A stretch of DNA of 32,000 bases from Erysipelotrichaceae bacterium (GCA_963663995.1 OY760660.1:1110001-1142000); one strand, 5' to 3'. Numbered from the stretch's first letter, positions 9,712 through 29,223 are shown. A program made the numbers and translations. The notes: a model not told the origin generated them from the sequence alone.

Positions 9712-9994
9712 ATTTCCCCCTTTTTTTATATTTTACTACAACATACTAGAATTTATTAGCATAAATGATTTTACACTAGATTCTGGACTGGAAAAGAGGT
9801 TTGATAATTTAAATTAACACATCATTAGCAATGTATACATATCCTTTTTTGTATTTTCATAAAACAGAAGGATGTTCACGTGGCAGCAATACAAATTCAT
9901 TTATATCAATTTTTCTTATTTTTTAAAACACTATTTTTTGCATAAAGCAGGGTTTGACACATCAAGATTTTATTTCATTTTATCATTACAACAT

Positions 9995-10018
9995 AAGAGC
10001 TCGAATGAGCTATGGAGA
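9995..10018 (+). promoter_or_regulatory. Conserved leader hairpin plus SD (copy 1)
   Basis: AAGAGCTCGAATGAGCTATGGAGA has stem AGCTC/GAGCT and ends in a GGAGA SD. A near-identical 24-mer (1 mismatch, in the loop) lies at 25703..25726. Confidence 0.5.
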
Positions 10019-10021
10019 TAT

Positions 10022-10720
10022 ATGATTATGAATAAAAAAGAAGCATTTGCATTGTACAAAAAAATGAAGAAAATCATTGAGACAAAAACCCCTTTTTATT
10101 TATCTTATGAAAATTTAAATGGAGATTTAACAGGCGTTTGGAAATACAATTCTGTTGAAATTTCTGTAGGCTTTGAATGTTGGGGCAGAGGTAAATATGT
10201 TTTCTATTGCGTTTATAGAAATAGTTTTGGGTTAGGCGAAAATTTTAAATTTTCAGATGATGTATCTGTTAGTATTGCTAAAATGCAATTTATTAATATG
10301 CTTAAACATTTTGATGAAACGCTTTATCTGCAACAAATTGATAATAAATATTGTGAAAATATTCTAAAAGAATTAGAAATGATTGAGTTACAAATAAGAA
10401 ATAAAATCTTAGATAAAAGAAAAATCTTGAGTAATTTCATTTGTAACAATCCTAAAAGATTTTCAATTTATCAAGATTATTGTGATTCAATTGATAATTT
10501 ACAAAAGCAATATCATCAGGTTTACGAAAACTGTCTTGATATTCAAATCTATTTTACTAAGAAAAGGTTAAACAATAATCCTAGTGAAAAGGAGAAGAAA
10601 CTTATTATCTTACTTATTGAAGTAGATAAAATTATTAATATGATTAATGAATTAATAGTAAAACTATATGATGATAAACTAAAAATGTATAACGAGATTA
10701 AGTTGAAAAGTAATAAATAA
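10022..10720 (+). CDS. Hypothetical protein (about 232 aa), with an N-terminal domain paralogous to the 25735 gene
   Basis: The ORF track gives 9872..10720. The likely start is the ATG at 10022 or 10028, just after GGAGA. The C-terminal half is coiled-coil-like. Both Trp codons are TGG. Confidence 0.6.
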   Translation: MIMNKKEAFALYKKMKKIIETKTPFYLSYENLNGDLTGVWKYNSVEISVGFECWGRGKYVFYCVYRNSFGLGENFKFSDDVSVSIAKMQFINMLKHFDETLYLQQIDNKYCENILKELEMIELQIRNKILDKRKILSNFICNNPKRFSIYQDYCDSIDNLQKQYHQVYENCLDIQIYFTKKRLNNNPSEKEKKLIILLIEVDKIINMINELIVKLYDDKLKMYNEIKLKSNK

Positions 10721-10875: not shown

Positions 10876-12132
10876 ATGGATAAAACAGTAATTGAATTGT
10901 TTGCAGGAGTAGGTGGTTTTAGAGTTGGATTAAATAATATTGCTGAATTTGATGGAGACGGAAAAGCGATTGAGAAGAATGATTGAAAGTTTGTATGAGC
11001 AAATCAATGAGAACCATCCACAAAATCACAACATGCATTTGAATGTTATGTTAAACGATTTGATAATCTAGGTGAAAATAGTAACACTGATATATCAATT
11101 GTAGATAAGAAATCCATTCCAAATCATTCAATTCTAGTAGGTGGATTCCCCTGTCAAGACTACTCAGTTGCGAGAACTAAAAGTAATGAAAAAGGTATCC
11201 AAGGAAAAAAAGGTGTTTTATTTTGGCAAATTGCTGAAATACTTGAGAATAAACATACACCTTTCGTATTATTAGAGAATGTTGATAGGTTAATAAAATC
11301 ACCTGCTCGGCAACAAGGAAGAGATTTTGGAATAATGCTTAGAACTTTTGCAGACCTTGGATACAACTTGGAATGAAGAATTATAAATGCAGCAGATTAT
11401 GGATGCGCGCAAAGAAGACGTAGGATTTTCATTTTTGCTTGAAGAAAAGAACTAAAATATAATGCGTGTTTAGAAAATCACTCAAGTGAAGCATTTTTGT
11501 GAGAACACAGTTTGTTCACAAAATCTTTTCCAATTAATTCTGAGAAATCATCTAGTCTTGATGTTAAGTCGGTTGATCTTAAGGATTATACTGATACTGT
11601 TTCTATTACTGACATGTTTAATTTTAAATTCGAAAACAGTGGATTCATGAAAGATGGAGTTGTTTTCACTGCAAAAACAAAGCCTGTGTTGGAAAAACCA
11701 ATTAGTTTATTTCAAATTAGAGATGAAAATTCTGATTTATCGAAATATCATCTATGTGAGAAACAAATTGAAAAAATGCAATACTTTAAAAACAGTAAGC
11801 GCATCAATAGAGTAAAACCTAATGGAGAGTCTTATGTATATTCAGAAGGAGGAATGAAATTCCCAGATAGTTTAGATTTACCAGGAAGAACAATTTTAAC
11901 AAGTGAAGCAAGCATTAACAGAAGTACACACGTTATTGAAGATAAATCAACTGGAAAACTACGTTTTATTACTCCAATTGAAGCAGAGCGCCTGCAATGT
12001 TTTCCTGATGATTGGACAAACACTGGTATGCCAGAATCTAGGAGATACTTCATGATGGGAAATGCTCTAGTTACAAAAATTGTAAATCGACTTGAACCTG
12101 AGTTAAAAAAAATAATTGAAAATGAACAATAG
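10876..12132 (+). CDS. DNA (cytosine-5) methyltransferase, intact only with TGA=Trp (six in-frame TGA)
   Basis: SD GAGGAG precedes the ATG at 10876. Motifs present: I FAGVGGF, IV GFPCQDYS, VI ENV, VIII QRRRRIF and the C-terminal GNA. In-frame TGAs at 10984, 10996, 11008, 11374, 11440 and 11500 give VWANQWE, LEWRIINAADYG and IFIFAW. There is no frameshift and no TAA or TAG over 418 codons. Confidence 0.85.
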
Positions 12133-12160
12133 TTTCACTTTCCAAATATATAAAGATTAA

Positions 12161-12187
12161 AAAAACAGTCTCATACAGACTGTTTTT
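12161..12187. terminator. Bidirectional rho-independent terminator
   Basis: AAAAACAGTCT-CATAC-AGACTGTTTTT is a perfect 11-bp stem flanked by A and T runs. It lies between the convergent methyltransferase and membrane-protein genes. Confidence 0.75.
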
Positions 12188-12527
12188 GATATTTGGTTTT
12201 GTACCAATTGGTACCTATAAAAATTAAAAAGATACTGAATATAATTCCTACAAAGACTTGCCAATTAGAATAAATCAGCTTCCCTATCCATATGACGCCA
12301 TATGTCAATAGCCAAATAATGAAAAAGAGAGATGTGCGAGTAACCCAATGTAAGACGCTCCCTATCGCTCTTCCATGAATTAATCCATCTCTATAAAAAT
12401 CTCCAACAAAACCAAATGCAACATTATATGTAATTGTTCCTAAAACCAATAATATAGCCCATTCCCAGATTGAATCTAAAATCGGTAATCCTATTGAGGA
12501 TGTAATTATGTTATAAATAAATGACAC
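12171..12527 (-). CDS. Small polytopic membrane protein (118 aa)
   Basis: Three to four hydrophobic helices. All 7 Trp codons are TGG. The gene ends at a TGA that lies inside the terminator hairpin. Confidence 0.6.
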   Translation of the reverse strand: MSFIYNIITSSIGLPILDSIWEWAILLVLGTITYNVAFGFVGDFYRDGLIHGRAIGSVLHWVTRTSLFFIIWLLTYGVIWIGKLIYSNWQVFVGIIFSIFLIFIGTNWYKTKYQKQSV

Positions 12528-12549
12528 TTTATTTTCTCCACTTCATCAT

Positions 12550-13143
12550 TTAGTTAGAATTTTCTAAAGATTTTAAATAATTGTAGTAAGTACGTCTTTT
12601 AATCACTGCAATATCACATGCTTCTGTTATTGTACGTCCTGTTTGTACTAAGTCGAATGCAATTTTTAATTTTTTTATGTCAGCTCTTGGTCGACCAAAT
12701 TTTATGTTTCTTTTTTTTGCTGATTCTATTCCCTCTGCTTGCCTTTGTTTATTGAAGGCACGCTCTTGTTCAGCCACATATCCTAATATGGATAGCACAA
12801 TATCCACAATAAATTTTGTCTGTAATCCAGTTCCTAGTTCTTGGTCTGTATTTAAGATTGGCATATCTAGAACATGAATATAAACACCCTTATCTGTAAT
12901 GGCTTTAAATTCTTTTTTAATTGCTTCATAGGATCTACCTAGACGGTCAATTGATTTAATCACACAAATATCCCCAGTTCTAAGGGTTCTCTTCATGTTC
13001 TTATATTCAATTCTTTCAAAGTTTTTCCCACTCGCTTTGTCAATAAAGATGTTTTCCAGAAGGACTCCATTTTCTAGAAATGCATCGACTTGCCTAGCTG
13101 CATTCTGGTCTTGGGTACTCACACGTGCATATGCAAATATCAT
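12550..13143 (-). CDS. Serine recombinase (resolvase/invertase family)
   Basis: MIFAYARVSTQDQNAARQ contains the catalytic Ser motif, and there is a C-terminal HTH (RTITEACDIAVIKRRTYYNY). SD GGAGAG precedes the ATG at 13143. The ORF-track start at 13194 is probably too long. Confidence 0.85.
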   Translation of the reverse strand: MIFAYARVSTQDQNAARQVDAFLENGVLLENIFIDKASGKNFERIEYKNMKRTLRTGDICVIKSIDRLGRSYEAIKKEFKAITDKGVYIHVLDMPILNTDQELGTGLQTKFIVDIVLSILGYVAEQERAFNKQRQAEGIESAKKRNIKFGRPRADIKKLKIAFDLVQTGRTITEACDIAVIKRRTYYNYLKSLENSN

Positions 13144-13161
13144 AAATACTCTCCAATTTTT

Positions 13162-13272
13162 GTGCAAAAATGTATTGTCATACTTTATGCACATATTTTA
13201 CCATTTTTATTATCAAAAAGCCCATTATAATAAGGGCTAGCTGTCTGTGCAAAATTGTATACATTTTTGCAC
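13162..13272. promoter_or_regulatory. res-like recombination sites upstream of the resolvase gene
   Basis: A 26-bp near-perfect palindrome GTGCAAAATTGTATACATTTTTGCAC lies at 13247..13272. A related imperfect dyad, GTGCAAAAATGTA-N6-TACTTTATGCAC, lies at 13162..13192. Confidence 0.45.
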
Positions 13273-13392
13273 TACATAAGAAATGATGAAAATATTTATT
13301 TTGTCAAAAGTAATATCAAATTATATAAAAATTACTTGATTTTATTATTTAAGTATCTAACTTCTTGAGGACTTGTTTTAATCAATGTTGGC

Positions 13393-14085
13393 TTATAAGG
13401 CACCCCCCATTTTTTTAATATCTTTCTTTAAAACTCCTATTTGTTCAGAAGTATTTTTAATGATGATAATTGGGTCATTAGAGTTACCATAACTAAAAAT
13501 AATATAATCAAGCTTTGTTGATTGTTCTAATTCTTTAATAAACTCAATATTATCGAAAATATTTATTTGTATTGGAATTCCTTCAATATCAATATAATTA
13601 CCTAAAGGTGTATTATCTGTAATTAAAAAGACAATTTCAATTTTCTTTACTGATTTAGTTTTTTCTTTAATGAATTCTTTATATTTATCTATAGAGTTGT
13701 AATGACTTCGAAATTTTAATAGCAAATTTTCTATATAATATTCGTAACTGCTTTCTAACGAAATACTACTATGCATTACCACATTAACTTGATCAAGATT
13801 TTTATTTTTTATCAAATCAATGAATTTTTTATCTTTAAAGTTCTCTGCTTGTTTATTAAAACTTCCACCATTAGAAAACTGAATTGACGAATCAAATTCG
13901 AATTCTTCTATTATAATTATTTTATCTTTTAATTCTAGATACAAATCGGGACGATTCTCACTATTATTTACAATCTTGTTATAACTAGTTTTAATTTCCA
14001 TAAGAAATTCTAAATCAGAAATATTGTAGTACCTATAATTATTGCATAGCGCATTATACAAGACATGTTTTTCATTTTTCTTCAT
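13393..14085 (-). CDS. Hypothetical protein (230 aa) downstream of the restriction gene
   Basis: ORF with probable start MKKNEKHV at 14085. No family recognised. The segment RPDLYLELKDKIIIIEEFEFD is only loosely nuclease-like. Confidence 0.55.
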   Translation of the reverse strand: MKKNEKHVLYNALCNNYRYYNISDLEFLMEIKTSYNKIVNNSENRPDLYLELKDKIIIIEEFEFDSSIQFSNGGSFNKQAENFKDKKFIDLIKNKNLDQVNVVMHSSISLESSYEYYIENLLLKFRSHYNSIDKYKEFIKEKTKSVKKIEIVFLITDNTPLGNYIDIEGIPIQINIFDNIEFIKELEQSTKLDYIIFSYGNSNDPIIIIKNTSEQIGVLKKDIKKMGGAL

Positions 14086-14231
14086 GAAATTATAATAACA
14101 AATAAATAAAACAAAAAAATACACCTTGTTGAATATTTCTTATTACATTGCATAATTTTGAATTAACTAAAGCGCTTATTATTTTCAAGTTTAACTATAT
14201 ACATATAACAACTAATAAAATTGATTACACA

Positions 14232-15770
14232 TTAAAAGAGACGCTCTTTATAAATATCCATAGTTGAAGAAAAATGTTTTTGCATGTCTTCAAGATTTTC
14301 TAATCTTTTAGTTACATGTACAAACTCTAGAATGTTATATGTTTTGAGATTAATTTTCTTGTATTCAACAAATTGCTGAATTAGACGAATATCATAAAAT
14401 GTTTTTGTATCCTCATGTACTATTGGTGCAACAAATGAAATATAACCTTCTCTCTCATCATTCTTCATATGTCTAATAACAGATGAAGTCTCAGAGTTAT
14501 ATTGCTGTTGTTTATTTTTAATCAAAGTTACTTCAATTAGCCAATTAATTTGATCTGAGAAAACATAAATATCTCCAATCCCTCCTGGAGCGTGAGAGAT
14601 TGGTATACCGAATGAATCAGTTTTATATTTAGGTTCAATTTTATATTTATCTCCATATGCAATGAACAATAGAAGTGAAATATAGAATTCAAGTTTCAAA
14701 GGATCATTAATATATTTAAATTTTTTATCTCGATTTTCATTTAAATCTTTTAACATTAAACTAATATCATCTAATCCAATTTCATATGTATCAACAATAC
14801 TTTGAAGTTTTGCGGCAGAGTTCTCTGGTGTATCAATAATCCAATTTGATGAAATTTCTAAAACTTTTATTGCATTTTTATTATAGTTTTTAAAGAACTC
14901 TAATTTATCAGTTTTCTCTTTATCCGTTTTTTTATAATCGTTTTTGAAAAGTGTTGTTATTAATTCAAAATTGTCAGAATTAATATATATTCTAAGACCT
15001 CTTGAAAGATATTTAATAGAAATTATACCAGTAATAGTTAACAACCTGAGTACAACGTCAGGGTAATCTCTTGTAATAGTACCTTTAGTGTTTAATGCTT
15101 GTAGCTTGTTTTTTGCATATAAATACACAGAATCACTATTTGGAAAATGGTTTTCTCTTATTAATTCAAGAAATTCTTCAACATTTCCATTTTTACTAAA
15201 CATTGCAATAGTTAATTGCTCATATGAAATTCCTTTATCTTTTATTTCGTTACTAATTAAAACTTCAACGATAAATTTAAAAAAATTGAAATCATTACTA
15301 ACGTTTCGAAATGGTGATTTTCTATTATATAGAACGGATGATGTTAAAAATACAATTTGATTATCAAGCTTACCCTTTATGAATAGTTTGCATAAATCAC
15401 TCAATTCTAGTTTTTCATTATATTCAACTCTAACTAAGCCAAATTCAGAAGGAGTTCTCATGTATGTCCAAAATCTCGACGCATAACCCGAAGGGAATCC
15501 ACCATCAGCTCTTCTAGTTCTATTCACATTTTTAACAAGCGCCTGTTGTGATTCTACTGGTAACATTGCAAAATCATTCGTTGATATTTCATTTGTCTTA
15601 AAAATACCTTCGCGATATAATTTTGTAACTATTATCAATAAATTCTCATCATTTAATTTAAAATAATTAAATTCAGAGATAGCATTTAAAATCGAAAGGT
15701 ATCTCTCGGGATTTCTAACTGCTGTCTCAAATGCCAACTGTTTAAACTTCGACGCTCTATGTACAACCAT
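14232..15770 (-). CDS. Type IIS restriction/nicking endonuclease of the AlwI/MlyI/PleI/BstNBI family
   Basis: 512 aa. The C-terminal block PISHAPGGIGDIYVFSDQINWLIEVTLIKNKQQQYNSETSSVIRHM...ISFVAPIV parallels the catalytic region of N.BstNBI (PVTHAAGNQPDMEIIYEDFIVLGEVTTSKGATQFKMESEPVTRHY...LFIAPEI). The gene lies directly downstream of two methylase genes. Confidence 0.65.
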   Translation of the reverse strand: MVVHRASKFKQLAFETAVRNPERYLSILNAISEFNYFKLNDENLLIIVTKLYREGIFKTNEISTNDFAMLPVESQQALVKNVNRTRRADGGFPSGYASRFWTYMRTPSEFGLVRVEYNEKLELSDLCKLFIKGKLDNQIVFLTSSVLYNRKSPFRNVSNDFNFFKFIVEVLISNEIKDKGISYEQLTIAMFSKNGNVEEFLELIRENHFPNSDSVYLYAKNKLQALNTKGTITRDYPDVVLRLLTITGIISIKYLSRGLRIYINSDNFELITTLFKNDYKKTDKEKTDKLEFFKNYNKNAIKVLEISSNWIIDTPENSAAKLQSIVDTYEIGLDDISLMLKDLNENRDKKFKYINDPLKLEFYISLLLFIAYGDKYKIEPKYKTDSFGIPISHAPGGIGDIYVFSDQINWLIEVTLIKNKQQQYNSETSSVIRHMKNDEREGYISFVAPIVHEDTKTFYDIRLIQQFVEYKKINLKTYNILEFVHVTKRLENLEDMQKHFSSTMDIYKERLF

Positions 15771-15778
15771 ACTTCCCC

Positions 15779-16669
15779 CTAATAATTAGTTATTAAAACT
15801 TCTAATGTTTCTTTTATTCTATTATCATGATAACTAATATAATTACTTTTAATTTTAGTAACTTTGTATTTCTTTGACCATTCTATCAATAAATCGTTAG
15901 AACAATTCTTATGATAAAAAACATTTGATAATGCGAACCTAACTCCATTTTCGTTTAATTTATCGATGATAGCTAGTAATCTTTTCTCTTCATCTAAAGT
16001 CCAATTTTTATTATATTCACTTGAACTAATCAGATATGGCGGATCGAAATAAACAAAATCGTTTTCTTTAAAAACTGCATTATCTAAAAATACTTCAAAA
16101 TCAAAATCACTGAATGAAATATCATTATTTTTAACAAAGTCAAAATAATTATTTAATGAATTAACAACATTTTTATTATAATCAACATTTCCCACAGGAA
16201 GATTAAACATGCCATTTTTATTAAATCTAATCATATGATTGAAACCGTAAATTAAAAGTAGATATAATCTAAATAAGTTACTACTGTTTTCATTAAAATC
16301 ATTTCTTAATTGATAATATGCTGATTTATTATAATGGGCATAATAAGTCTTAACATATTTTTTTTTCATTTCATCATCTACAACTTTACCTAAGTAGGAT
16401 GCAGAAAGTTTATAATAACTTATCATATTTTCAATTTCTTTAAAAAAAATCGTTTTTCTATCCTTATAAGAATATAGAAATTTGTGTAAATCAATCATTG
16501 ATTTATTCTTATCATTGCATTTAAATTTCTTTGCTTCTACATTTAAAAACACACTACCACCACCTACAAACGGTTCAAAAAAAGTTTCAATTTGACTTGG
16601 AAAATTTTTTTTAAGTTGGCGAATTAATTTATATTTATCTCCAACATAAAAAAATGGTGACCTATTCAT
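15779..16669 (-). CDS. N6-adenine DNA methyltransferase, Dam/D12 class (M2)
   Basis: Motifs YVGDKYKL, FEPFVGGGSVFLN (AdoMet binding) and FDPPYL (catalytic). The start overlaps the stop of the upstream methylase gene (ATGAATAG). Confidence 0.85.
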   Translation of the reverse strand: MNRSPFFYVGDKYKLIRQLKKNFPSQIETFFEPFVGGGSVFLNVEAKKFKCNDKNKSMIDLHKFLYSYKDRKTIFFKEIENMISYYKLSASYLGKVVDDEMKKKYVKTYYAHYNKSAYYQLRNDFNENSSNLFRLYLLLIYGFNHMIRFNKNGMFNLPVGNVDYNKNVVNSLNNYFDFVKNNDISFSDFDFEVFLDNAVFKENDFVYFDPPYLISSSEYNKNWTLDEEKRLLAIIDKLNENGVRFALSNVFYHKNCSNDLLIEWSKKYKVTKIKSNYISYHDNRIKETLEVLITNY

Positions 16670-17690
16670 TAAAGATTCCTACCTTTGTAACAAATAAAAA
16701 CTCTTTGTGTTCATTCAAATCAGTTTTACCTGCAGAAAAAGCCTTGTGTTCTTTACTAAATACTTTCGTGTTCCCAATACTTGACAAAATTTCTTCAATT
16801 TCTTCTAAAGTCATTTTATTTTTTGATGATTTACTCTTAGATTTGTACGTATTATTATACGAAACAACAATATATTTTGAATTAATTTCATTAACTAGTT
16901 GTTCAAAAAAATATGCCGCTTTTGCTTTAGAATATTCGCTAATATTTTCCGGTTCAGGTTTTAAAGCCTCTCCAAACAACTCTGGTTTATCCCATTTGGT
17001 GATTGTCTCTAATACATGATAAAACCTACTATATTGTCTTGATGAATAAGGAGGGTCTATATATGTAATATCAGAAGAAATTTTTGAAGCTAATTGATTA
17101 GAATCTTCTCGATAGATTACAAATTTCTTTCCTTTATAAACATTATTGTCATAATTAACTAGGTTAAAAATAAACGAATTCTTAATACTATTATTTTTGA
17201 TATAAGCATCATAATGACCTACTGTATTCGAAATTCTGTCTAATGAATATAGTAACGATGCTATCAATATACTATATTCTCTTTTATTTAAATATCCTTT
17301 GTTTTCTTCGATGTCATCTCTAATATAGTCAATTTTCATTGCATCAACTTTTGAAAAATATTTATCTCCATAACTATTTGCAACAAAACCGCTATATAAA
17401 GATTCAGCAGCAATGTTTGTATATTTTTCTTTAAAAAATTTAATTTTTTTATCATCTACTACTTCTGTTCCATAAAAAGACTTATAAATAACCTCATTTG
17501 AATATAAAAAATCATTCAAAATAAACGTATCATATAAATCTAATACACCAAAAGTAACACTACCAGTACCTGCAAAAATATCACAAAAAGAATTGCAATC
17601 TTTGCATTCTTTATTTAATACATCTCTAATCCATAAAATTAGTTTATTTTTACTTCCAGTATAACGCCTATTTGTAATTTCGAATGTCAC
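16662..17690 (-). CDS. N6-adenine DNA methyltransferase, Dam/D12 class (M1)
   Basis: Motifs RRYTGSKNKL, DIFAGTGSV and IDPPYSSRQYSRFYH. GTG start at 17690. Confidence 0.8.
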   Translation of the reverse strand: MTFEITNRRYTGSKNKLILWIRDVLNKECKDCNSFCDIFAGTGSVTFGVLDLYDTFILNDFLYSNEVIYKSFYGTEVVDDKKIKFFKEKYTNIAAESLYSGFVANSYGDKYFSKVDAMKIDYIRDDIEENKGYLNKREYSILIASLLYSLDRISNTVGHYDAYIKNNSIKNSFIFNLVNYDNNVYKGKKFVIYREDSNQLASKISSDITYIDPPYSSRQYSRFYHVLETITKWDKPELFGEALKPEPENISEYSKAKAAYFFEQLVNEINSKYIVVSYNNTYKSKSKSSKNKMTLEEIEEILSSIGNTKVFSKEHKAFSAGKTDLNEHKEFLFVTKVGIFNE

Positions 17691-17807
17691 GTGAGTTATT
17701 CATCTACTTTCTACTAAATATTAAATATTAATCAACATAATATAATTACTATACCATTTCTGCATTTATTTAAAGTTAATAATCTATATTTGTGACTAGT
17801 TTCCCAT

Positions 17808-19289
17808 TTATTTTCAATTTCTTTTAGTCATAACTTTACTGTATTTATATATTGTCGGTCTAGACACACCAAGTTCTTTTGCATATTGTGTTGGAGATTT
17901 ACCTGGATTTTCTCTAATATATTTAATAACCATTTCCTCTAGAGGTTTTCTTCCATTATTTTCTCTTCAATTAATCCCTTTTTTGAGATTTCTCTTTTGC
18001 TGATTTCTCGCCATTCACAGATGACGTTTTTGTGTTCTTTTGTTTCTCTTATTTCGTTCAATTTTTATTCCAGTCTTTAATTCAATTCACTTTAATGACA
18101 TTTGAAAATTTTCATCATCGTTGTATATTTTAAGAGCTGTTCAAACATCAGCTTCTGTGAATTCATTATGCTCAGAATTATCGATTGAATTAAATAATGG
18201 TATTAATTCAAATGCATCTTTTTCTAGTTGTTCAAATGATGTGTTTGATTTCTTAGCGTAAACGGCTAAAACAGCAATACATCAATAACGTGCACCTACC
18301 CTCACTTCTTTCTTGATTAAATTCAACCATCAGAAATAAACCTCTTTTTTTACTGTTCAATGCTTTTTAGGTTCTTTATTTACTACTCTTCTCTTATACC
18401 AGTCTGGATGTTCCTTTTTCATTTTCTGTAATTTCTTACTTTCTCCTTTTCCAAAATCTTCCAAACTGAATTTTTTATTATTACTTCTAGATTTATACAA
18501 AACATTATGTTCGTTGAGGAATGTCAAAAGTTCTTCTAATTTGATACTATCTCCATATTGGTACGTTTTTGCTAAATGACCACGACCAAATTTTGTTGCT
18601 GATGTAGGTAATCTAAAACTTTGTAATAATCCTAAACTTTGAGGTATAGGAATATTACTTGTTAAGTCATTTCAAATTATGTTTGTTAATTCTTTTTTAA
18701 CTAGGTCAAGAGCATTATAGTTTTCAACGCTAGCAGCAATCGGCTCATCAAAAACATAGTATAAATGAAGACCATTTCCTGAATTAGTAATGAAGGTAGG
18801 TTTAAGTATAAACGATTGGTCAATAAGATGAATGAGAGTTAGTAAATGTTCAGATGTAACTCCATCTAAATCAAATGTCAAAGCATGAATGTTTTTCATA
18901 TTAACTTTTCTAGGACTATTGCCCACATATGTAACAGGGGACATATAAGCAAAACTAGCATTCTCAAAATATTCTAGATTCTCCAATTCATCAAATAGTA
19001 TAAAAGGCTTCACATAATATCTATCTTTTGTCTTGTTTAGAACATTAGACTCACACATGACTATAACATTCCCACGTTTATTAGAAGTCTCATTTTTCTT
19101 CTGCAATGAACCACTGGGGAAAATGCATCTAACAAAATCTTTTAAAGAGGTTTCTTCGAGAAAAGTTGATAGTAATTTTTCTTTGTTATAAAAATCTTCT
19201 AGACCTTTTTGATTTTTACAATTGATTTCTTGTGCTGGCCTTATATTTAAAAAATAATTCTCATAATTTCAATCTAATCTTTTGTGCAT
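17808..19289 (-). CDS. Archaeo-eukaryotic-type primase-polymerase / replication initiator with C-terminal HTH, intact only with TGA=Trp (ten in-frame TGA)
   Basis: SD GGAGGTG precedes the ATG at 19289. The 493-codon frame was checked triplet by triplet and contains no TAA or TAG. In-frame TGAs at 17814, 17967, 18015, 18087, 18141, 18282, 18330, 18357, 18672 and 19269. AEP motifs FDLDG (DxD) and NSGNGLHLYYVF (sGxGxH). C-terminal HTH is SPTQYAKELGVSRPTIYKY. The ORF track sees only 18672..19106. Confidence 0.8.
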
Positions 19290-19423
19290 TTTATAGCACC
19301 TCCAAAATATTTGTGAATAAAAACGGTTAAAGTAAAGTCCAAAACATATAATACAGATCACAATTATAAGATTTATTACAATCCATTCAATAAGCTATTC
19401 AAGCTAATATCAAAGAATATGCA

Positions 19424-19602
19424 ATAAGCTAAGCTGCTTTAGAGAATCACTTAGAGTTCATGCGTTGATCGTCCACCGTTTATACATTGCCTTTGCAAAT
19501 AGACTCTGAGTTGCTTCAGTACATGAGTAGCCATAACCCCCTGAGTCAGAACTTGTTTCACTACGCCGTTGTGTTTCAATCCATACAGTGATATAAGCTA
19601 AG
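19424..19602. other. GC-enriched non-coding module bracketed by 10-bp direct repeats (candidate ori, small RNA or miniature insertion)
   Basis: ATAAGCTAAG occurs at 19424..19433 and again at 19593..19602. The roughly 160 bp between them is visibly richer in G+C than the surrounding sequence and lies 135-310 nt upstream of the primase-polymerase start. Confidence 0.35.
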
Positions 19603-19937
19603 TAACTCGTGTTCAATTGTCTAGTCTAGTAATGTCACCTATATTATCAATTCTTTTTTTTTACACTTTTATTCTATTGTGAAGATTAAAAAGAATAAAA
19701 ATAGGGTGTTTTAAGAATTTTGGATAAACAGACAAGTCTTTCAACATTTTAGAGACAAATCAATTCTGGCAAAAAATCAATCGGTAGTAAATTTATTCAT
19801 GCCTGTTTTAGTATCAAAATAGACTGTATTTAAAGAATTTATAGTAGACTCGATAAAAGATATACTAAAATTTAAAATGTTTTGAATTGAGACTATTTTA
19901 TAAGTTTATTCGATTAAAGCCATTTTGATGTCTTCAT

Positions 19938-19961
19938 AAAAAAAAAGAGAAGCAATTTCTC
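19938..19961 (-). terminator. Probable rho-independent terminator after paralog A
   Basis: The minus strand reads GAGAA-ATTGC-TTCTC followed by T9, about 45 nt downstream of the TGA at 20007. Confidence 0.45.
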
Positions 19962-20006
19962 CTCGTTTAATATTTTTATATTCTGTGCATTAACAATGAC
20001 TTTAAT

Positions 20007-20426
20007 TCAAGCTTCATATGGGTAGAGTGATAATTCATAAGTGTTATAGAAATCTTCATTGCTTATGCCATTATCAATACTACATTGGTTTTTATATGCA
20101 TCATTACATAGTTCATCATCAGGAAATCGACCATTGTTATCAGCAAATACAATGCGCCAAATAGTCTTATCAGTATCTAATAATGAATTCATTTTTTTAA
20201 AACGAACTGGTCTTTTAAATGCATTGAATTTCTTCTGCTCACTTAATGCTTGTTTGTGTTCTCTACAAACTTCGACAATTGTATCAATTAACCTTTCTGC
20301 TTGTTTAAGATCAAGTGGTAAATTGAGTTCAACTTCCAACCCACAATATTTGTCTGCGCCACTTGTAATAAACACTAAACCATTCCTATAAAAAATACTT
20401 ATCTTCCAATCATTGATTTCTCTCAT
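20007..20426 (-). CDS. Small cytoplasmic protein, paralog A of a three-member family (DUF4262-like pattern)
   Basis: 139 aa with SD AAAGGAG. It shares NGA(D/A)KYCGLE(I/V)ELNLPLD and IWRIVFAD.N..FP(D/E)D with 22122..22541 and 22733..23155. Trp codons are TGG. It ends at TGA at the same alignment position where the paralogs end at TAA. Confidence 0.7.
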   Translation of the reverse strand: MREINDWKISIFYRNGLVFITSGADKYCGLEVELNLPLDLKQAERLIDTIVEVCREHKQALSEQKKFNAFKRPVRFKKMNSLLDTDKTIWRIVFADNNGRFPDDELCNDAYKNQCSIDNGISNEDFYNTYELSLYPYEA

Positions 20427-20538
20427 TTTCTTGCTCCTTTTTCAATCAATGATTTATTCTATTGGGTTAATTCTAGAATTATCAGAATTTAAAAAAATTC
20501 AGAAAGAATGATAAAGAACCAGAGGATTGATATGTAAC

Positions 20539-20805
20539 TCAAGAACTCTGATAAATCAAGTTGTGTAAGTAACGTCCAAATTTAATCATTATTTTTCTAA
20601 ATGCAAAATACAAATAGATAAAAATAAAACTCGAAAGTATACCCTTCCAGGTTTGAGAGAATGTGACTGACTCGACAAAGAGTGTATAAAAAAACAATAC
20701 TATTCCTGTTGCAGCGGCTATTACGAAAGAAAAGAGCATGATTTTTGTAAGAAACGGTAAGATCGATTCAACACCAACTGTAAGAAAAGGTCTTCTTTTA
20801 TTCAC
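20539..20805 (-). CDS. Small two-helix membrane protein (88 aa)
   Basis: GTG start at 20805, 7 nt after GAGGAG. Two hydrophobic helices. Ends at TGA. Confidence 0.5.
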   Translation of the reverse strand: MNKRRPFLTVGVESILPFLTKIMLFSFVIAAATGIVLFFYTLFVESVTFSQTWKGILSSFIFIYLYFAFRKIMIKFGRYLHNLIYQSS

Positions 20806-20869
20806 GTAAAAACTCCTCAACTACTATGCAACTTTTGCTTCAATCATCTTAAATGGTTCATGGAACAGT

Positions 20870-21352
20870 TTAATTATTATTTGTTAAATCCACAATAGCA
20901 ATCACTTTACAAGCGATTTGAGAGCCTTTTAACGGACCCCTTGTTCGAGAATCATAACTATTTGAATAGTTATCCCCAAGCAAGAAATATTCCCCTTCTC
21001 CTAGGATATAATGTTGGTCATTAATAGCTTTGAGTTTTACATTTGTTAATGTTACACCATTGATTGTGACGTTAAATCCATCAACCAATACTTCATCACC
21101 TGGAACACCAACAACTCTTTTTAAGTAAGGTTCTAGGGTTTTCCCATCCGCAGCAGCCCAATCATTAATTCTGTTTGTACTTACGATGTCGCCAACTTCA
21201 TATCCAAAGTTAACGCAAATACCAACACCGATATCGCCTGTTCCAATTGTAGGCTCCATAGAATTACCAAAAGGGAATATAGGTCTAAATGTGTACATAA
21301 CAAATACCAATAATGTAAATTTTACTAAGAAGTCTTTGTCGATTTTTTTCAA
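20870..21352 (-). CDS. Signal peptidase I (S26 family), short form
   Basis: Motifs GNSMEPTI (catalytic Ser), YLKRVVGVPGDEV (Lys box) and GDNYSNSYDSR. 160 aa with an N-terminal TM anchor. Confidence 0.85.
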   Translation of the reverse strand: MKKIDKDFLVKFTLLVFVMYTFRPIFPFGNSMEPTIGTGDIGVGICVNFGYEVGDIVSTNRINDWAAADGKTLEPYLKRVVGVPGDEVLVDGFNVTINGVTLTNVKLKAINDQHYILGEGEYFLLGDNYSNSYDSRTRGPLKGSQIACKVIAIVDLTNNN

Positions 21353-21590
21353 AATATGTCTCCTTTAGTCTATTTGACTAATTATTTTAATGAGACTTAT
21401 ACAATGACCTCTTATTTGTTCCCTTTTATACATATAAATTATATCATGTTTAATTTAATTGTAATAACAATTCAAATATCAATGAATCCATTTTATTATC
21501 GTAATAAATTCTTAGTGTTATTTAATTCTTCAACAGGTTTAAAAAGAAAACACCCTTCAAATTGAATGATGTTTAAATGTACAAACTTTT

Positions 21591-21923
21591 TTATCCAACT
21601 GTACCATCTATGTATAAAAATGAATAATAATCACTTTCATAATAAGTGTAGTAAAGTTGAAAACAATTTTCTTTAGGTCGAAAAACAATAGATTTTGGTA
21701 ATAAATTTTCTCTTGCTTCTAAACCGAAACCATTTAGAAAATTGATAATAAGTCATTTTGCAAATTCTTTTTTTACATTTGATAGGTGTGACATTCCTTC
21801 AATTTTCAGAATATCAAACTCTAGAACCTTTTTAACTTCTTCACAGGTTTTAAATTTACCATTTTCTATTTTGTGAGCAATATATGCATATTCCACATAT
21901 GGATACCGTAACGGTGTTTTCAT
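21591..21923 (-). CDS. Hypothetical protein (110 aa), intact only with TGA=Trp (one in-frame TGA)
   Basis: SD AAAGGAG lies 8 nt before the ATG at 21923. The frame continues 55 codons past the TGA at 21753 with no TAA or TAG, reading ...KEFAKWLIINFLNGFGLEARENLL...YIDGTVG. Confidence 0.5.
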
Positions 21924-22121
21924 TCTTTGAACTCCTTTCAATCTTTTCAGATATGTTCTCATTCTATATCGACAAAACTATTTAGTTTTTAATAGGTGGT
22001 TTCAGCATTTAAAAACATGCTTTAGCAATCTTCTAGCTGATCACTCTAATGAAATTGAAGAGGAGTTTTCAATCTCATCTTGATTGAATATTAAACAAAT
22101 TTTAAAAAATGCTACATGCAT

Positions 22122-22541
22122 TTATGCATCAAACTTTCTTGCTCTTGTTAATGTATATACTAAAAAGTCTAATGGATCCATGTTACGTTCATCTTTCAAT
22201 TGATATTTAAAGTGAATATCACAATTTGAATCTTCTGGAAATAGATTGTTCCAGTCTGATAAAACCACTCGCCATATTTGCGTTTTTCCATTTATAAATG
22301 AGACTTCTTTTTTAATTCTAATTAAATTTTTGATAATACTTAGTTCCGTAATTTCAGAAGGTTGTATATTCTCATCTCTACACTTTTCAATAATAGCATC
22401 CATAATCTCTTCAGCGTTGTTTAATAGAATTGGAACAATGAATTCAATTTCTAGACCACAATACTTATCTGCTCCATTTGATATTAGCGCACAAGCAAAT
22501 TGATTATTTACGTCAAATTCCCAATCTTTATTCTTTTTCAT
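22122..22541 (-). CDS. Paralog B of the three-member small-protein family
   Basis: 139 aa from the ATG at 22541 (SD AAGAGG). The ORF-track start at 22574 is probably too long. Ends FDA-TAA. Confidence 0.7.
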   Translation of the reverse strand: MKKNKDWEFDVNNQFACALISNGADKYCGLEIEFIVPILLNNAEEIMDAIIEKCRDENIQPSEITELSIIKNLIRIKKEVSFINGKTQIWRVVLSDWNNLFPEDSNCDIHFKYQLKDERNMDPLDFLVYTLTRARKFDA

Positions 22542-22732
22542 TCTGTACCTCTTGGACATCTGTTTTGATATCACTTTACTAGATGATTTTGATTTTATAA
22601 GATGTTAAAAGATAATTGTACGAAACCTTGCATTAGCAATCTTCAAGCTGATCACTCTAATGAAATTGAAGAGGAGCTTTTCATCTCCTCTTGATTGGAT
22701 ATTTAACAAATCTTAAAAAATGCTACATGCAT

Positions 22733-23155
22733 TTATGCATCAAACACCTTTTTAAAAATATCATATTGATTTAAATATTCTTCATAATTCATGTCGTTAT
22801 CTACACTTAGCTGTCTCTTATATATTGATTCACATGCAGGGTCTTCAGGGAAAAGATTATTTGAATCAGCAAAAACGATACGCCACACGAGTGTTTTTTC
22901 ATCAAATAAGGAAATCATTTTCTCGAATCTAACGGGACGTTTGATTCGTTCGTTTAGTTTCTGAATTTCATGTACTGACTTATTCTCATCTCTGCATGAT
23001 TCAATAATAATGTCTAATAATTCCCTTGCACGATATAAATCAAGCGGTAAGTTGAGCTCAATCTCTAATCCACAATACTTTGCAGCACCATTTGAAATGT
23101 ATACTGCTCCATTGCGCATGAATACACTCATGCGCCAGTCTTTTTTCTTTGTCAT
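22733..23155 (-). CDS. Paralog C of the three-member small-protein family
   Basis: 140 aa with SD AGGAGG. Closest to paralog A. Ends FDA-TAA. Confidence 0.75.
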   Translation of the reverse strand: MTKKKDWRMSVFMRNGAVYISNGAAKYCGLEIELNLPLDLYRARELLDIIIESCRDENKSVHEIQKLNERIKRPVRFEKMISLFDEKTLVWRIVFADSNNLFPEDPACESIYKRQLSVDNDMNYEEYLNQYDIFKKVFDA

Positions 23156-23427
23156 TTTGGACCTCCTGGATATCTATTTTGATATCCCTTTTTGACTGAT
23201 TTTGATTTTATAAGAAGTTGAAAGACATTTGTACGAAACCTTGCATTAGCAATTTTGACACTAGATTTTCATATCAATTTCAGATCAGTGATTCAGATTT
23301 AGAAAAAGAGAAACACGCATTTATGTCTCTCTTATCTGAAGGCAATGTTATGGTTGGGGGGAAGTTCATTGCCTTTATTAGTATTCTAACTGATTAACTC
23401 TTTTAAGTTGTCTCAAATTCGTCTCAA

Positions 23428-24414
23428 TTACACTTTCTTTTTTTCAAGTTCTAATCACTCAGGGTCACTCTTCTTAAGTAAGCATCGATTTTCATCTCTA
23501 TTTCAATAATTTATCCCAGTCATATTAAAATGTCGATTCACATTCACATTTACAAATTTGTAACCATCAAATGTTTCATCGAACCTTTTCTTTTCTGGTG
23601 TTGCCCTTCCAAAATTGCTGACTCTACCCACATTGTTGGAAGTGACTCTCATATGACTTTCATACAGTTCTTTTTTACGCTTATTTCATACATAGAATGT
23701 TATTGAGTAGTGATATGCCATTTGATGATACTCCATGAAGTCATTGATTCTTCGTGTTATTTCAATCAGTTTTTGATTTGTTATATTATCATCTGAGTCT
23801 AAAACCATGAACTCGATGCTTTTCAAATGCTTTGACTCATCTAATTTAGGTCGTAGATAGATGTGTCGACGATATAGCATTAATAAGGTAACTTTGGGTT
23901 TCTCTGGTGCATTCTTTATATTAATGAACTTATCTTTTGAAGCATCACCTTTTCTATTTCTATTCTTTAAACTTTGATTTTTATGGTCAAGATGAAATTG
24001 CATCCATTCTTTACCTTTATAGAGATGTGCTGATAATTGAATATTATTACCCAAAAAATCTTTAGATACAGGTCTTGTTCAATTTATCAGTGCATTGTAC
24101 AAATAGGGTATTTGGTTCATGTTAATAAACCATGGAAAATCAAACCCTTCTTCATCTTCAATCGCTTTTGCCATTATTAATAATCGTTTTTTATTTATTC
24201 TCATTCCATTTGATTGAGTAACGAATAAACTATTCTCTCGTTCATTATAGTTGACCACATTTATTCCAGGTATTTTCCTGAGATATTCAATAAAGTAGTT
24301 TTGTGATGGTCTTTCACTTTCTGGCAATGCATCATATAGTTGTTTAACTAATAAACCACCATGTTTTTTTACAAGTTCAATAATAACTTCATCATTATAT
24401 TTTTTGCGTTTCAA
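23428..24414 (-). CDS. Hypothetical 328-aa protein, intact only with TGA=Trp (four in-frame TGA)
   Basis: TTG start at 24414, 5 nt after GGGAGG. The frame joins track ORFs 24079..24414 and 23686..24054 and extends to the TAA at 23428. In-frame TGAs at 24079, 23686, 23503 and 23455. The junctions were checked and contain no TAA or TAG. The N-terminus looks like a winged helix. Confidence 0.65.
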
Positions 24415-24931
24415 ATTGTCCTCCCATACGGCGTGCGAATTCGCGTTTCTTTTCGATATGTTCTTTTGTGTAATGAGTGGTTGTTATTTCTATAAAAACC
24501 CACTCACCATTATCCTTTCTATATGCTCCATCACAAACTGATAGTTTATCCAGTTTCAACCCTTTATCAAATGCAAGTTGCCTTAATTCACTTTCTGTTT
24601 TTCAAGAACATTGCTCACTCTTAGATCTACTTGCAAAGTAATCAAATAAAACTTTGTCATGTGAATAACTATTTGATACATAGGGATGAACTCATGTTTC
24701 CTTTTCAAAAACTTCTCTACCCTTCTGTGTTGTTCTATATCATGAATGATTAGCATCATATTCATCAGTAATTCACCCAAGATTTTTTCAAGTAAATAAT
24801 CGGTTCTTTGAAATGCCTGAATAGGCTATCGCATCCTCTTTTGATAGATTACAGACAATATTAAATAGACGTGCACATTTTATATCACTATCCATTCAGG
24901 TATTCATTTTTCAATCACCTTTTCGACTCAT
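24395..24931 (-). CDS. wHTH protein resembling the replication-relaxation family, intact only with TGA=Trp (seven in-frame TGA)
   Basis: SD AGGAGG precedes the ATG at 24931. The 178-codon frame was checked triplet by triplet. In-frame TGAs at 24911, 24896, 24788, 24773, 24740, 24692 and 24602. The pattern WKNLGWI...YRTTQKG...SHDKVLFDYF...CDGAYRKDNGEWVFIEITTTHY parallels Replic_Relax-type proteins. The gene overlaps the next gene by 20 nt. Confidence 0.6.
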
Positions 24932-25164
24932 TAATATAGACCTCCTATAGTTTATATGTGTTAATTAAAACAATTGAAAATACTTTGTTGATTTTAATAT
25001 TTAAAAATTGTCATGTTCAAAATTTTATTCAAATCTTCTATTCATTTGAAATAAGCTTTTTCTTTGTTACGCTTTTATATACATACACAAGCAAGAATCA
25101 AGTATGTCCAATTTCTATTGAAATGATCAGACTTTAAACCACTTTTCTTAGTTTTCTTAATCTG

Positions 25165-25518
25165 ATGGGGGGGTTAGTCTTAAAACAGCTATGGTATGTT
25201 AGCATTTTGTATAATTTGAAGTTGCTAATAATCTATAGTGTTAATATATGATGTCTAGTTTTGGTTTATTCTAAAATCATAAGAAAGTGAGTTCCTACGT
25301 ATAAAATACAAATTAATTTCTATAACGGTGAAAATAAAGGTCAAGAATGGATTCTTAAAAATCTAAGTATTGAAAATGTAGTTTCTTTTTACAAACGACT
25401 ACCAAAGAATTATTCAAATACGATGATCATTTATGTTTACCATGTTAAAAAAAGAATTTTGATTAGTGATTTTATATTAGACAATTTAACAACTCAAAAC
25501 AAACAAACAATTAGTTAA
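25165..25518 (+). CDS. Hypothetical 117-aa protein with an N-terminal TM helix, intact only with TGA=Trp (two in-frame TGA)
   Basis: The frame is open for 127 codons apart from TGAs at 25249 and 25288. The ATG at 25165 is followed directly by a G7 tract. There is no obvious SD, so the start is uncertain. Confidence 0.45.
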
Positions 25519-25702
25519 GATTTTTTATTTTTACTTTTTAGTTCTTACACATTAACTTTGCATTTCATTGCTACTTAATAACTGATAAACATAGTTTTCA
25601 TGTATTTAGAGATTTAAATCAACAATAAACTTTACTTTCAGTTTCCTAATGCAAACTTTCAAACACAAGTTTTTTCTTTGTTTTATTATCTGCATATAGA
25701 AC

Positions 25703-25726
25703 AAGAGCTCGAACGAGCTATGGAGA
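25703..25726 (+). promoter_or_regulatory. Conserved leader hairpin plus SD (copy 2)
   Basis: AAGAGCTCGAACGAGCTATGGAGA matches 9995..10018 with 1 mismatch. About 50 nt of upstream sequence is also similar between the two copies. Confidence 0.5.
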
Positions 25727-25734
25727 ATAAGAGT

Positions 25735-25965
25735 ATGAAAGCAAAAGAATTAGAAGTTTTATTCAAGAAAGTTTGGAATGATTTAGAGTTAAATAAGGAT
25801 GCAAAGATTCTTCATTATCAATGTGATAAAAATTTCCATGTCGTGTGGCAAACAGATGGTTTAGAATTTTCTATGAAATATGATTATATCTCTGAGAATG
25901 ATTATCATTTTGCACAATATATAAAAGAAATTTCATCAGGAAATTTTATCATGGATATTAAATAA
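25735..25965 (+). CDS. Hypothetical 76-aa protein, paralogous to the N-terminus of the 10022 gene
   Basis: The ATG at 25735 lies 8 nt after GGAGA (alternatively ATG at 25721). ELEVLFKKVWNDLE...FHVVWQTDGLEFSMKYD aligns with EAFALYKKMKKIIE...LTGVWKYNSVEISVGFE. Confidence 0.55.
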   Translation: MKAKELEVLFKKVWNDLELNKDAKILHYQCDKNFHVVWQTDGLEFSMKYDYISENDYHFAQYIKEISSGNFIMDIK

Positions 25966-26097
25966 GGTTCATACATATAAAATATGGTTTTGATTATTCT
26001 TTTCCTTTGAAATATGAATGAACAAAATCAACTAAATGTAATAATCTTAAAATAACTATCTAAAATATAAGTGTTAAAACAAAAAGGATGAAGAAAA

Positions 26098-26283
26098 TTG
26101 AAAATAGATATTACAATCAATTTCTGGATAATTGTAAACTCCTTTTCTTCGATTTGAGATGATAAGCAATTCGACCCCTTTCCCTTTAATACAATTGCAA
26201 AATTCAGTAGTTTAAATTCAGATACTTATAACTGAACAACTACTATCCAATTCATCTTTGTTTTAATAGCTACCTCAAGGTAG
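26098..26283 (+). CDS. Possible 61-aa protein needing TGA=Trp (two in-frame TGA)
   Basis: TTG start at 26098 after AAGGA (or GTG at 26071). In-frame TGAs at 26155 and 26233. The stop TAG lies inside a strong terminator. Confidence 0.3.
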
Positions 26284-27324: not shown

Positions 27325-27789
27325 ATGAAAAAAATGAAAACAGAGAGATCAGAATCTTATTCTCTTTTTACTAAAGAAATTACAAATGATGTTCAATTAA
27401 CAAACGCAGAATTGAATCACCTTTTTGATGCTTTTATTGATAAATATGGAAAAAATTTTAAACATTCATATTTCAATACTGAGCAAATTTTGGAAACTTA
27501 CGATGAATTAATTAGAGATACATTAGGACTAGTTGATATTAGTAATTTAAATCAAAAAATAATCGATGATTGGGTTGAAGAGGAAGTAAAAATATTATTA
27601 GAAATATTTGGAGATGCACCAGAAATAGATATATGGTTAGAAAATTATATTAATCATAGTTTATCCATTCTAGAATATATTAAATTTTATGCGATGTTTG
27701 ATTTAAAAGTTACTTTGCATTATGACATTAGAAAAATTAATATTCACTCTGTTGAGTCAAAGATTAGGAGAAGAGAAAATGTTAAATAA
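27325..27789 (+). CDS. Hypothetical protein (154 aa)
   Basis: SD AAAGGAG precedes the ATG at 27325. The gene overlaps the integrase start by 11 nt. Confidence 0.6.
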   Translation: MKKMKTERSESYSLFTKEITNDVQLTNAELNHLFDAFIDKYGKNFKHSYFNTEQILETYDELIRDTLGLVDISNLNQKIIDDWVEEEVKILLEIFGDAPEIDIWLENYINHSLSILEYIKFYAMFDLKVTLHYDIRKINIHSVESKIRRRENVK

Positions 27790-29202: not shown

Positions 29203-29223
29203 TGGTGCGCGTGACAGGAATCG
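29203..29223. repeat. Proximal att direct repeat (3' end of the intact tRNA-Leu)
   Basis: Identical 21-mer to 1585..1605. Confidence 0.8.

Follow-up and report, generated by a model that had tools for sequence, protein, structure and literature searches.

How can genes that are intact only if TGA encodes tryptophan (Trp) be kept by a bacterium that otherwise writes Trp as TGG and ends genes with TGA? The question is raised by an integrated element in a 32,000-nucleotide stretch of DNA from an Erysipelotrichaceae bacterium (GCA_963663995.1 OY760660.1:1110001-1142000), hereafter the window, in which recoded genes (class R) lie interleaved with standard-code genes (class S) beside a tRNA-Leu gene. 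The best explanation for the window is a plasmid-derived integrative element in a tRNA-Leu hot spot of an uncultured, standard-code Erysipelotrichaceae, and comparison with related elements shows, at the level of gene sequence, that the split between the two gene classes is a conserved property of an element family.

The initial annotation had listed seven frames with a total of 32 in-frame TGA codons, each with its own Shine-Dalgarno sequence and none with a TAA or TAG. The last of these points was borne out for all seven when the open reading frames (ORFs) of the window were re-called with TAA and TAG as the sole stops, and five of the frames were accepted as recoded genes:

10876..12132, plus strand: orphan C5 cytosine DNA methylase (PF00145, 5e-63); 6 TGA and 2 TGG codons
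17808..19289, minus strand: RepA-type plasmid replication initiator (Rep), 493 amino acids (aa), with a C-terminal helix-turn-helix, assigned by homology; 10 TGA and 3 TGG
21591..21923, minus strand: p110, a 110-aa protein conserved beside Rep in the related loci L001 and L002; 1 TGA and 0 TGG
23428..24414, minus strand: p328, the 328-aa partner of p178; 4 TGA and 2 TGG
24395..24931, minus strand: p178, a 178-aa winged-helix protein whose gene overlaps that of p328; 7 TGA and 1 TGG

Together these genes hold 28 in-frame TGA codons, with no TAA, TAG or frameshift across 1,527 codons at ~30% GC, and a strong Shine-Dalgarno sequence precedes each of them. The two remaining frames did not stand:

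25165..25518, plus strand: doubtful ORF with 2 TGA and 2 TGG; a homologue covers the C-terminal ~70 codons only
26098..26283, plus strand: unsupported 61-codon ORF with 2 TGA

In the first, both TGA codons lie upstream of the part homologous to a 73-aa protein of contig L173, and the ATG lacks a Shine-Dalgarno sequence; for the second, no homologue was found in any locus compared. Five genes and 28 TGA were therefore accepted. With the frame at 25165-25518 included, the six candidate ORFs contain 30 TGA and 9 TGG, as opposed to 0 TGA and 59 TGG in the 23 other genes of the window (Fisher p = 1.5e-17).

Alignments of the Rep, methylase, p178 and p328 families place the TGA codons at Trp columns, in agreement with the initial reading of TGA as Trp. 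Four of the Rep TGAs fall on invariant Trp columns; in 80 metagenomic Rep homologues of standard code, TGG occurs 9-16 times (mostly 11-13) and internal TGA is essentially absent. The six methylase TGAs, four of them at positions common to the window and locus L169, lie on Trp columns of all-TGG homologues, with the exception of one non-conserved position. In the p178 and p328 families the codon likewise coincides with conserved Trp columns: the p178 'NSw' and p328 'Y[VT]w' columns each carry TGA in six of the six members with Trp there, and the p328 'Yw' column is also TGA wherever Trp is present. Given the relatedness of the elements and the small numbers, such same-column TGA across elements is no more than suggestive. 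Class R genes end only in TAA or TAG. Selenocysteine as the meaning of TGA was rejected, since the codons align with Trp and number up to 10 per gene, and Rfam found no SECIS element.

The standard-code genes inside the island are arranged as follows:

12171..17690, minus strand: TGG-only cassette between two recoded segments (Pfam and codon counts)
20007..20426, minus strand: ~140-aa paralogue with 3 TGG and a TGA stop
20870..21352, minus strand: S26 signal peptidase in the standard code (PF10502, 4.7e-21)
22122-22574 and 22733-23155, minus strand: two further ~140-aa paralogues, TGG only
27722..29059, plus strand: tyrosine integrase (Pfam Phage_integrase 5.7e-20, with Phage_int_SAM_3); 0 TGA and 3 TGG

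Codon counts confirmed that the integrase and the restriction-modification cassette use TGG exclusively, as first annotated. The TGA that ends the paralogue at 20007-20426 occupies the position at which the two other paralogues have TAA, and the L002 homologue also has TGA there; within the cassette, a membrane protein (12171-12527) stops with TGA, with 39 bases between its end and that of the recoded methylase. With TGA a stop in class S and a sense codon in class R, there are therefore two classes that differ in their reading of TGA, and the presence of both in one element presupposes two different readings. Besides the membrane protein, the compact cassette, with a third-position GC content (GC3) of 0.19, encodes a serine resolvase, a 243-aa protein, an AlwI-type IIS endonuclease and two D12 N6-adenine (m6A) methylases, and looks like a mobile restriction-modification cassette inserted later into the recoded element. 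A fragment of an AlwI-like endonuclease similar to that of the window flanks the integrase of the related locus L180. For the ~140-aa paralogues, a Foldseek search with the predicted structure gave nothing; that they are anti-restriction proteins was a provisional idea, which nothing supports.

The window's own backbone, with 2 Trp codons, is uninformative about the host code, which was therefore read from relatives. The closest genome is the chromosome OY781039.1 of a metagenome-assembled genome (MAG) named 'Erysipelotrichaceae bacterium' (L003), with TrxB 91% and the AAA ATPase 92% identical. Ten backbone genes of L003 contain 28 TGG, no in-frame TGA and one TGA stop, the last ending a complete OppD (ABC_tran and oligo_HPY domains) nine bases before a complete OppF; because OppD ends in TGA and sense TGA is absent, this indicates table 11 as the code of the host lineage. 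In the host flanks of two integrated relatives, TGA stops an alanine racemase (L170) and an esterase, with an ATGA overlap (L171), neither with in-frame TGA, and ~40 host-flank genes show no in-frame TGA and use TGA stops at ordinary frequency. Core genes with in-frame TGA, by which the organism would simply be a table-4 one, were thus not seen in the backbone of L003, L170 or L171, and the L003 counts and the TGA stops in the L170 and L171 flanks speak against a table-4 organism. Within Bacillota, a 2026 survey assigns table 4 to Mycoplasmatales only (10.64898/2026.05.24.727570). As a separate observation, an ABC ATPase in the host flank of L171 (13013-13897) is split by an in-frame TAG between its ABC_tran and DrrA C-terminal domains, with no change of frame from one to the other; a pseudogene, an assembly error and other causes are all conceivable.

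The same TGA/TGG split was found in at least six related elements of 27-41% GC. L001, a plasmid-like contig of 10.4 kb with ParA, has 3 TGA and 5 TGG in Rep and 2 of each in its p328 homologue (5 TGA and 7 TGG for class R as a whole), and its other genes have no TGA and 10-12 TGG; the Rep of L002 also has 3 TGA and 5 TGG, among neighbouring genes that are all TGG. In L173-L177 the p178 and p328 pair is almost wholly TGA; these plasmid-like contigs, as well as L001, carry no host genes and no tRNA. L180 (12.6 kb) has 6 TGA and 1 TGG in Rep, 2 and 1 in p178, and 6 and 1 in a p328-like gene, with 4 TGG in its integrase, 2 in PemK, 13 in two cargo genes and no TGA in any of these (pooled, 14 TGA and 3 TGG in class R versus 0 and 23 in class S). 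The methylase of L169 has 4 TGA and 3 TGG, and the complete genes next to it have 0 TGA and 8 TGG. Two members of 41% GC, L170 (a JGI contig) and L171 (the NCBI Erysipelotrichaceae MAG GCA_030604855.1), are integrated beside tRNA genes, with 11 TGA and 23 TGG, and 13 TGA and 14 TGG, respectively, in class R. In both, the p178 and p328 homologues and several membrane or surface proteins carry in-frame TGA, and the integrase and a pair of methylase and MutH-type endonuclease are all TGG; a standard-code gene caller had cut their recoded genes into fragments of 46-211 aa. The integrases of the window, L170 and L180 have 3, 2 and 4 TGG, respectively, and no TGA. Homologues of p328 were found in L001, L173, L171, L170, L177 and L180. 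L171 and L172 are identical, so that no micro-evolution could be followed between them.

Two side observations concern individual members. In L180, small ORFs called with table 4 at 4202-4507 and 11272-11742 probably end at TGA: in one, TGA is directly followed by TAA, and the other would end 30 bases before the start of the next gene, which suggests that L180 also sits in a setting where TGA is a stop. In L170, among recoded membrane and leucine-rich-repeat proteins, lies a TGG-only 353-aa protein (4250-5311) that combines a membrane helix at its N-terminus with a C-terminal baseplate Gp10 domain (PF21939, 2.7e-22), the only phage-like domain seen in the family.

Are the recoded genes maintained? 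The ratio of nonsynonymous to synonymous substitution (dN/dS), taken from pairs that share TGA positions and hence diverged after recoding, with dS > 1, is 0.11 for the methylase (versus L169), 0.22 for Rep, 0.13 for p178, 0.28 for p328 and 0.39 for p110. By this measure class R is shown to have been under purifying selection while containing TGA, and a simple pseudogene reading was rejected on the same ratios. All integrated copies, three or four in number, are intact. The GC3 of the recoded genes is close to that of the host in the window (0.204 versus 0.203), in L171 (0.455 versus 0.471) and in L170 (0.482 versus 0.431), the restriction-modification cargo of L170 and L171 being atypical at 0.34, and within the window the codon usage of classes R and S correlates with r = 0.95. 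The nearest named relatives of the methylase are from Erysipelotrichaceae, namely Faecalicoccus, Floccifex, Dubosiella and one Erysipelotrichaceae MAG. Selection, matching GC3, codon usage and methylase relatives argue against a recent Mollicute origin, dead cargo and a chimera, and the element looks maintained rather than decayed. The first alternative of the initial annotation, a recent capture from a table-4 Mollicute that is untranslatable here, is opposed by the same evidence and by the presence of such TGA genes in table-11 chromosomes.

The recoded genes point to a plasmid rather than a phage. Rep has 310 homologues, with E-values down to 1e-129, the majority of them from small plasmids in Clostridium perfringens and Paraclostridium sordellii, and gave 214 matches against plasmid records, some annotated 'repA' (Campylobacter plasmids); its homology to plasmid-annotated initiators is full-length, in a family without a Pfam model. 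For p178, all three database homologues have in-frame TGA and are untranslatable under table 11, and a profile search detected 157 relatives, one of them fused to a RepB primase. PF13814 (Replic_Relax) did not match p178 itself and gave weak matches in 6 of 35 profile-detected relatives (best E 2.4e-4). The N-terminal winged helix has profile and fold matches in the PDB, those by Foldseek being weak only, and AlphaFold models of p178 and of the ~140-aa paralogues have a pLDDT of ~64; on its profile relatives, p178 appears to be distantly related to the plasmid Replic_Relax family. A phage was rejected, as no PHROG match rose beyond noise, INPHARED and IMG/VR gave no match, and Rep belongs to a plasmid family; megablast and tblastn searches of INPHARED, the PHROG comparison and the IMG/VR scans made with Rep and p178 profiles returned nothing relevant. 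No packaging gene was recognised by Pfam or PHROGs among ORFs of which several are unannotated, and no near-identical plasmid was found in the plasmid search.

The methylase occurs as an orphan both in the window and in L169, and its all-TGG homologues in L170 and L171 (8279-11254) are arranged divergently beside a MutH/Sau3AI-type endonuclease; further all-TGG homologues, in L178 and L179, adjoin a Vsr endonuclease and an integrase. Recoding of the methylase therefore coincides with loss of its restriction partner.

The placement of the element rests on the tRNA-Leu gene and on attachment (att) repeats of its 3' end:

29203..29287, minus strand: tRNA-Leu, anticodon tag (ARAGORN; Rfam tRNA 56.7 bits)
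29203-29223: right-hand att repeat, the tRNA-Leu 3' end, an exact 21-bp repeat
1585..1605, plus strand: left-hand att repeat, TGGTGCGCGTGACAGGAATCG, an exact 21-bp copy
9872..10720, plus strand: 282-aa ORF, N-terminally homologous to a 107-aa protein of L173, with Trp as TGG here and as TGA in L173

The tyrosine integrase adjoins the tRNA gene, whose 3' end recurs as a direct repeat, as is characteristic of tRNA-targeting integrative elements. The two 21-bp copies bound a variable region (1606-29202) that includes the genes of a phosphotransferase system (PTS), a 345-aa protein, an insertion sequence (IS) and a PASTA lipoprotein. The host/island boundary first drawn was wrong, therefore, in that most of the presumed backbone, including the PTS, IS and lipoprotein genes, lies between the repeats; the TGG-only background described around the recoded genes stands as a count over the 23 other genes, and is for these loci a property of the variable region. 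L003 has the same tRNA-Leu and flanks with 8 kb of different DNA between them and four copies of the att repeat, and carries the left repeat at the same junction (window 455-1628 aligns to L003 19684-20861). This marks the site as a hot spot. The left repeat, shared by both genomes, is probably an old scar, and what it bounds is the hot spot, not necessarily this single element. No second, internal att site by which the recoded element could be delimited on the left was found in the window, and the ORF at 9872-10720 may mark the element's left part.

Several further features of the hot spot were recorded. In L003 (11432-19727), the four att repeats follow the tRNA-Leu gene with two 423-aa ORFs of identical length between them, which looks like a tandem accretion of small islands. 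A 22-bp motif, AAAACTAGGGGC(RR)ACTAGGGG, occurs 40-100 bp from the tRNA-Leu att repeats in the window (1683-1704 and 29084-29105, inside the variable region at both ends) and in L003 (18621-18642 and 19648-19669), and may be an arm-type integrase site or be left over from earlier island ends. Within the att-bounded region, a 442-aa ORF (6462-7790), with the PTS operon on one side and the PASTA lipoprotein on the other, encodes what we take, from its sequence, to be an ISL3-family transposase. The 345-aa protein (1888-2925), with 9 Trp, lies beside the PTS operon, which is of the beta-glucoside type, and has no Pfam or PHROG match.

How, then, could one element use both readings of TGA? Code-gated expression of the replication module, in a non-phage element without an on-board suppressor tRNA, is the best reading, and is given here about an even chance. 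In the resident state the host would terminate at UGA and only class S would be made, so that the element would stay integrated and keep its defence genes; the replication and relaxation module would be translated only when UGA is efficiently read as Trp. A co-resident phage or element could supply the decoder, as a tRNA-Trp(UCA) or a UGA-reading tRNA-Trp variant; it could also be a conditionally expressed host gene. The genetic code would in this way gate the switch from integrated to autonomous life, as has been proposed for recoded prophages. The broader claim, that this element family of Erysipelotrichaceae uses the genetic code as an expression gate through a factor that it does not itself encode, in some members for surface and transfer genes as well, is a shade less probable. 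Constitutive decoding by the host is unlikely, since TGA stops are used normally by the hosts and no sense TGA occurs in class S. For leaky readthrough, Karow (1998), as cited in PMC7918605, gives ~6% per UGA in B. subtilis, which by arithmetic leaves a negligible yield across 7-10 UGAs and is thus insufficient.

A similar scheme had been the second alternative of the initial annotation, in which a UGA decoder is supplied in trans to an island that keeps its replication and methylation genes silent. The conserved split, the TGA stop in class S and the absence from the window of any tRNA other than tRNA-Leu, confirmed with ARAGORN and Rfam, favour a decoder supplied in trans, and no such decoder was found. 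Its extension to the methylation genes does not hold for the methylases of the AlwI cassette, which are not recoded, and its talk of a satellite and a helper phage is purely conjectural.

Several results weigh against code-gated expression. No tRNA(UCA) was found in the window by ARAGORN or Rfam, or by ARAGORN in 172 related loci that were fetched or in L180, and no release factor or TrpRS gene was found on the elements. Only 2 Trp codons occur in the true backbone of the window, where no gene stops with TGA, and L001, L002, L173-L177, L180 and L169 are unplaced contigs that could come from table-4 bacteria. The TGA share falls with GC, from ~80% at 29% GC to 32-48% at 41% GC, as would be expected of neutral drift under an effective table 4, and selection for TGA as such is therefore not demonstrated. 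A special readthrough context at the +4 position was rejected: an A follows TGA in 19 of 30 cases within the window, and when nine elements are pooled it does so in 46 of 90, versus 26 of 63 after TGG (p = 0.25). Lastly, the recoded class of L171 includes surface and membrane proteins, so that a restriction of recoding to replication genes fails for the family as a whole.

Among the alternatives, it is possible, if unlikely, that the productive hosts are table-4 bacteria (uncultured Mycoplasmatales) in which Rep is functional and the element lives as a plasmid, and that in table-11 Erysipelotrichaceae nothing but the code-neutral class S is functional, so that the element could only integrate there and the recoded module would be silent. 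The low-GC members have a TGA share of 75-86%, which is typical of Mollicutes; the plasmid-like L001 and L173-L177 lack host genes and tRNA, and a Rep with 3-6 TGA must be decoded if these contigs are to replicate; and avoidance of sense TGA in class S is what a two-host element would need. This account is countered by the GC3 of class R, which matches each table-11 host, including values of 0.455 and 0.482 at 41% GC that are unusual for Mycoplasmatales, and by the Erysipelotrichaceae affinity of the nearest named methylases. Moreover, no named Mollicute protein occurs among the 120 best Rep matches (four 'Mollicutes' plasmid records show < 35% identity), two elements have TGA as the terminator of a class S gene, and every class R gene is intact in all three or four integrated copies.

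More doubtful is an ambiguous host code, in which the hosts would read UGA as Trp to a useful degree while retaining RF2. The decoder would be either a chromosomal tRNA-Trp(UCA) or a tRNA-Trp(CCA) whose anticodon stem has 4 bp, and such a state would lie midway in the Mollicute reassignment, with mobile elements alone exploiting it. Erysipelotrichaceae are among the closest standard-code relatives of Mycoplasmatales, and the elements carry no tRNA of their own, both of which would fit. UGA-reading tRNA-Trp variants have been documented, as have suppressor tRNAs in 0.3% of standard-code genomes (PMC13092985). The ordinary use of TGA stops in the host flanks (ATGA junctions, OppD|OppF), with no in-frame TGA in ~40 genes, speaks against an ambiguous code, and the total avoidance of TGA in class S would be needless if decoding were constitutive.

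That the TGA genes are dead cargo, either non-functional remnants from a table-4 donor or pseudogenes, is quite improbable. It would account for the lack of a decoder, and the window element is interrupted by a cassette with restriction-modification and resolvase genes and lies in a composite island with an IS; it is contradicted by the uninterrupted 1,527 codons at ~30% GC, by the dN/dS range of 0.11-0.39, by recurrence of the pattern in divergent elements and hosts, and by GC3 ameliorated to each host. A chimeric assembly joining table-4 and table-11 DNA can practically be dismissed, for although the window was read from an assembly only, it would need at least four junctions within it, the same interleaving occurs in independent assemblies from ENA, JGI, NCBI and Logan, and classes R and S share their codon usage.

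The closest known parallels to a code-gated element are the TAG-recoded Garnet and Topaz prophages (Borges et al., bioRxiv 10.1101/2021.08.26.457843), which occupy tRNA genes in standard-code hosts and whose integrases are not recoded. Like the window element, they measure ~20-25 kb, sit at a tRNA gene of a standard-code gut bacterium, and have many genes with an in-frame reassigned stop and an integrase free of it; the stop codon still terminates unrecoded genes, and the code has been proposed as a lifestyle switch. They differ in that TAG is read there as Gln, whereas here TGA is read as Trp, no phage genes are present and the host is an Erysipelotrichaceae; what is recoded here is a plasmid replication and relaxation module with a methylase, rather than the structural or lysis genes of recoded prophages. 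The window element thus shares with those prophages the recoding, the standard-code host and the free integrase, and neither is a phage nor carries code-change machinery on board, the latter being frequent but not universal among such recoded elements. Not being a phage, it falls outside that group. The TGA-recoded lytic phages Agate, Jade and Sapphire also read TGA as Trp in standard-code Firmicutes, with recoding that is specific to gene classes and can arise among close relatives (10.1101/2021.08.26.457843). They are 127-200 kb in size and often bring their own code-change machinery (suppressor tRNA, RF1 or TrpRS), in contrast to the ~10-25 kb of the present family, which has no tRNA, release factor or aminoacyl-tRNA synthetase.

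Cellular and plasmid comparisons are more distant. In the table 4 of Mycoplasmatales TGA also encodes Trp and is preferred over TGG at low GC, as in class R, whereas here the host core and class S genes use only TGG for Trp and end in TGA, and recoding is confined to a subset of mobile-element genes. RepA-type plasmids of Clostridium perfringens, Paraclostridium, Staphylococcus, Enterococcus and Campylobacter share the initiator at 29-36% identity over ~90% of its length, but their Rep has 11-13 TGG and no internal TGA, and they are not integrated. Phage-inducible chromosomal islands provide a functional analogy only, as small integrated elements with an integrase, an initiator of their own and a possible dependence on an outside factor; unlike such satellites, the present element has no identified packaging or capsid-redirecting genes and no known helper, and its dependence would act at the level of the genetic code. 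No description of code-level dependence for satellites was found in the literature, and no paper on recoded plasmids or integrative elements in standard-code Firmicutes was found in a literature search of incomplete coverage.

Stop-codon recoding within standard-code cells has so far been described for phages. What is new here is that the codon is TGA and not TAG, that the carriers are plasmid-like integrative elements and not phages, that the replication module is recoded (and, in some members, surface genes) and not late genes, and that no code-change machinery is aboard. Standard-code gene callers shred such genes, and these elements will consequently be systematically mis-annotated in MAGs. 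Actual translation of the recoded replication module in Erysipelotrichaceae would make code switching a form of regulation general to mobile DNA and not one peculiar to phages. As the hosts are among the closest standard-code kin of the bacteria that fixed UGA as Trp, the origin of that reassignment becomes experimentally approachable; and should the decoder prove to be host-encoded, a UGA-reading tRNA-Trp together with RF2, these hosts would represent, in living cells, an intermediate stage of the Mollicute UGA-to-Trp reassignment that mobile elements were the first to use.

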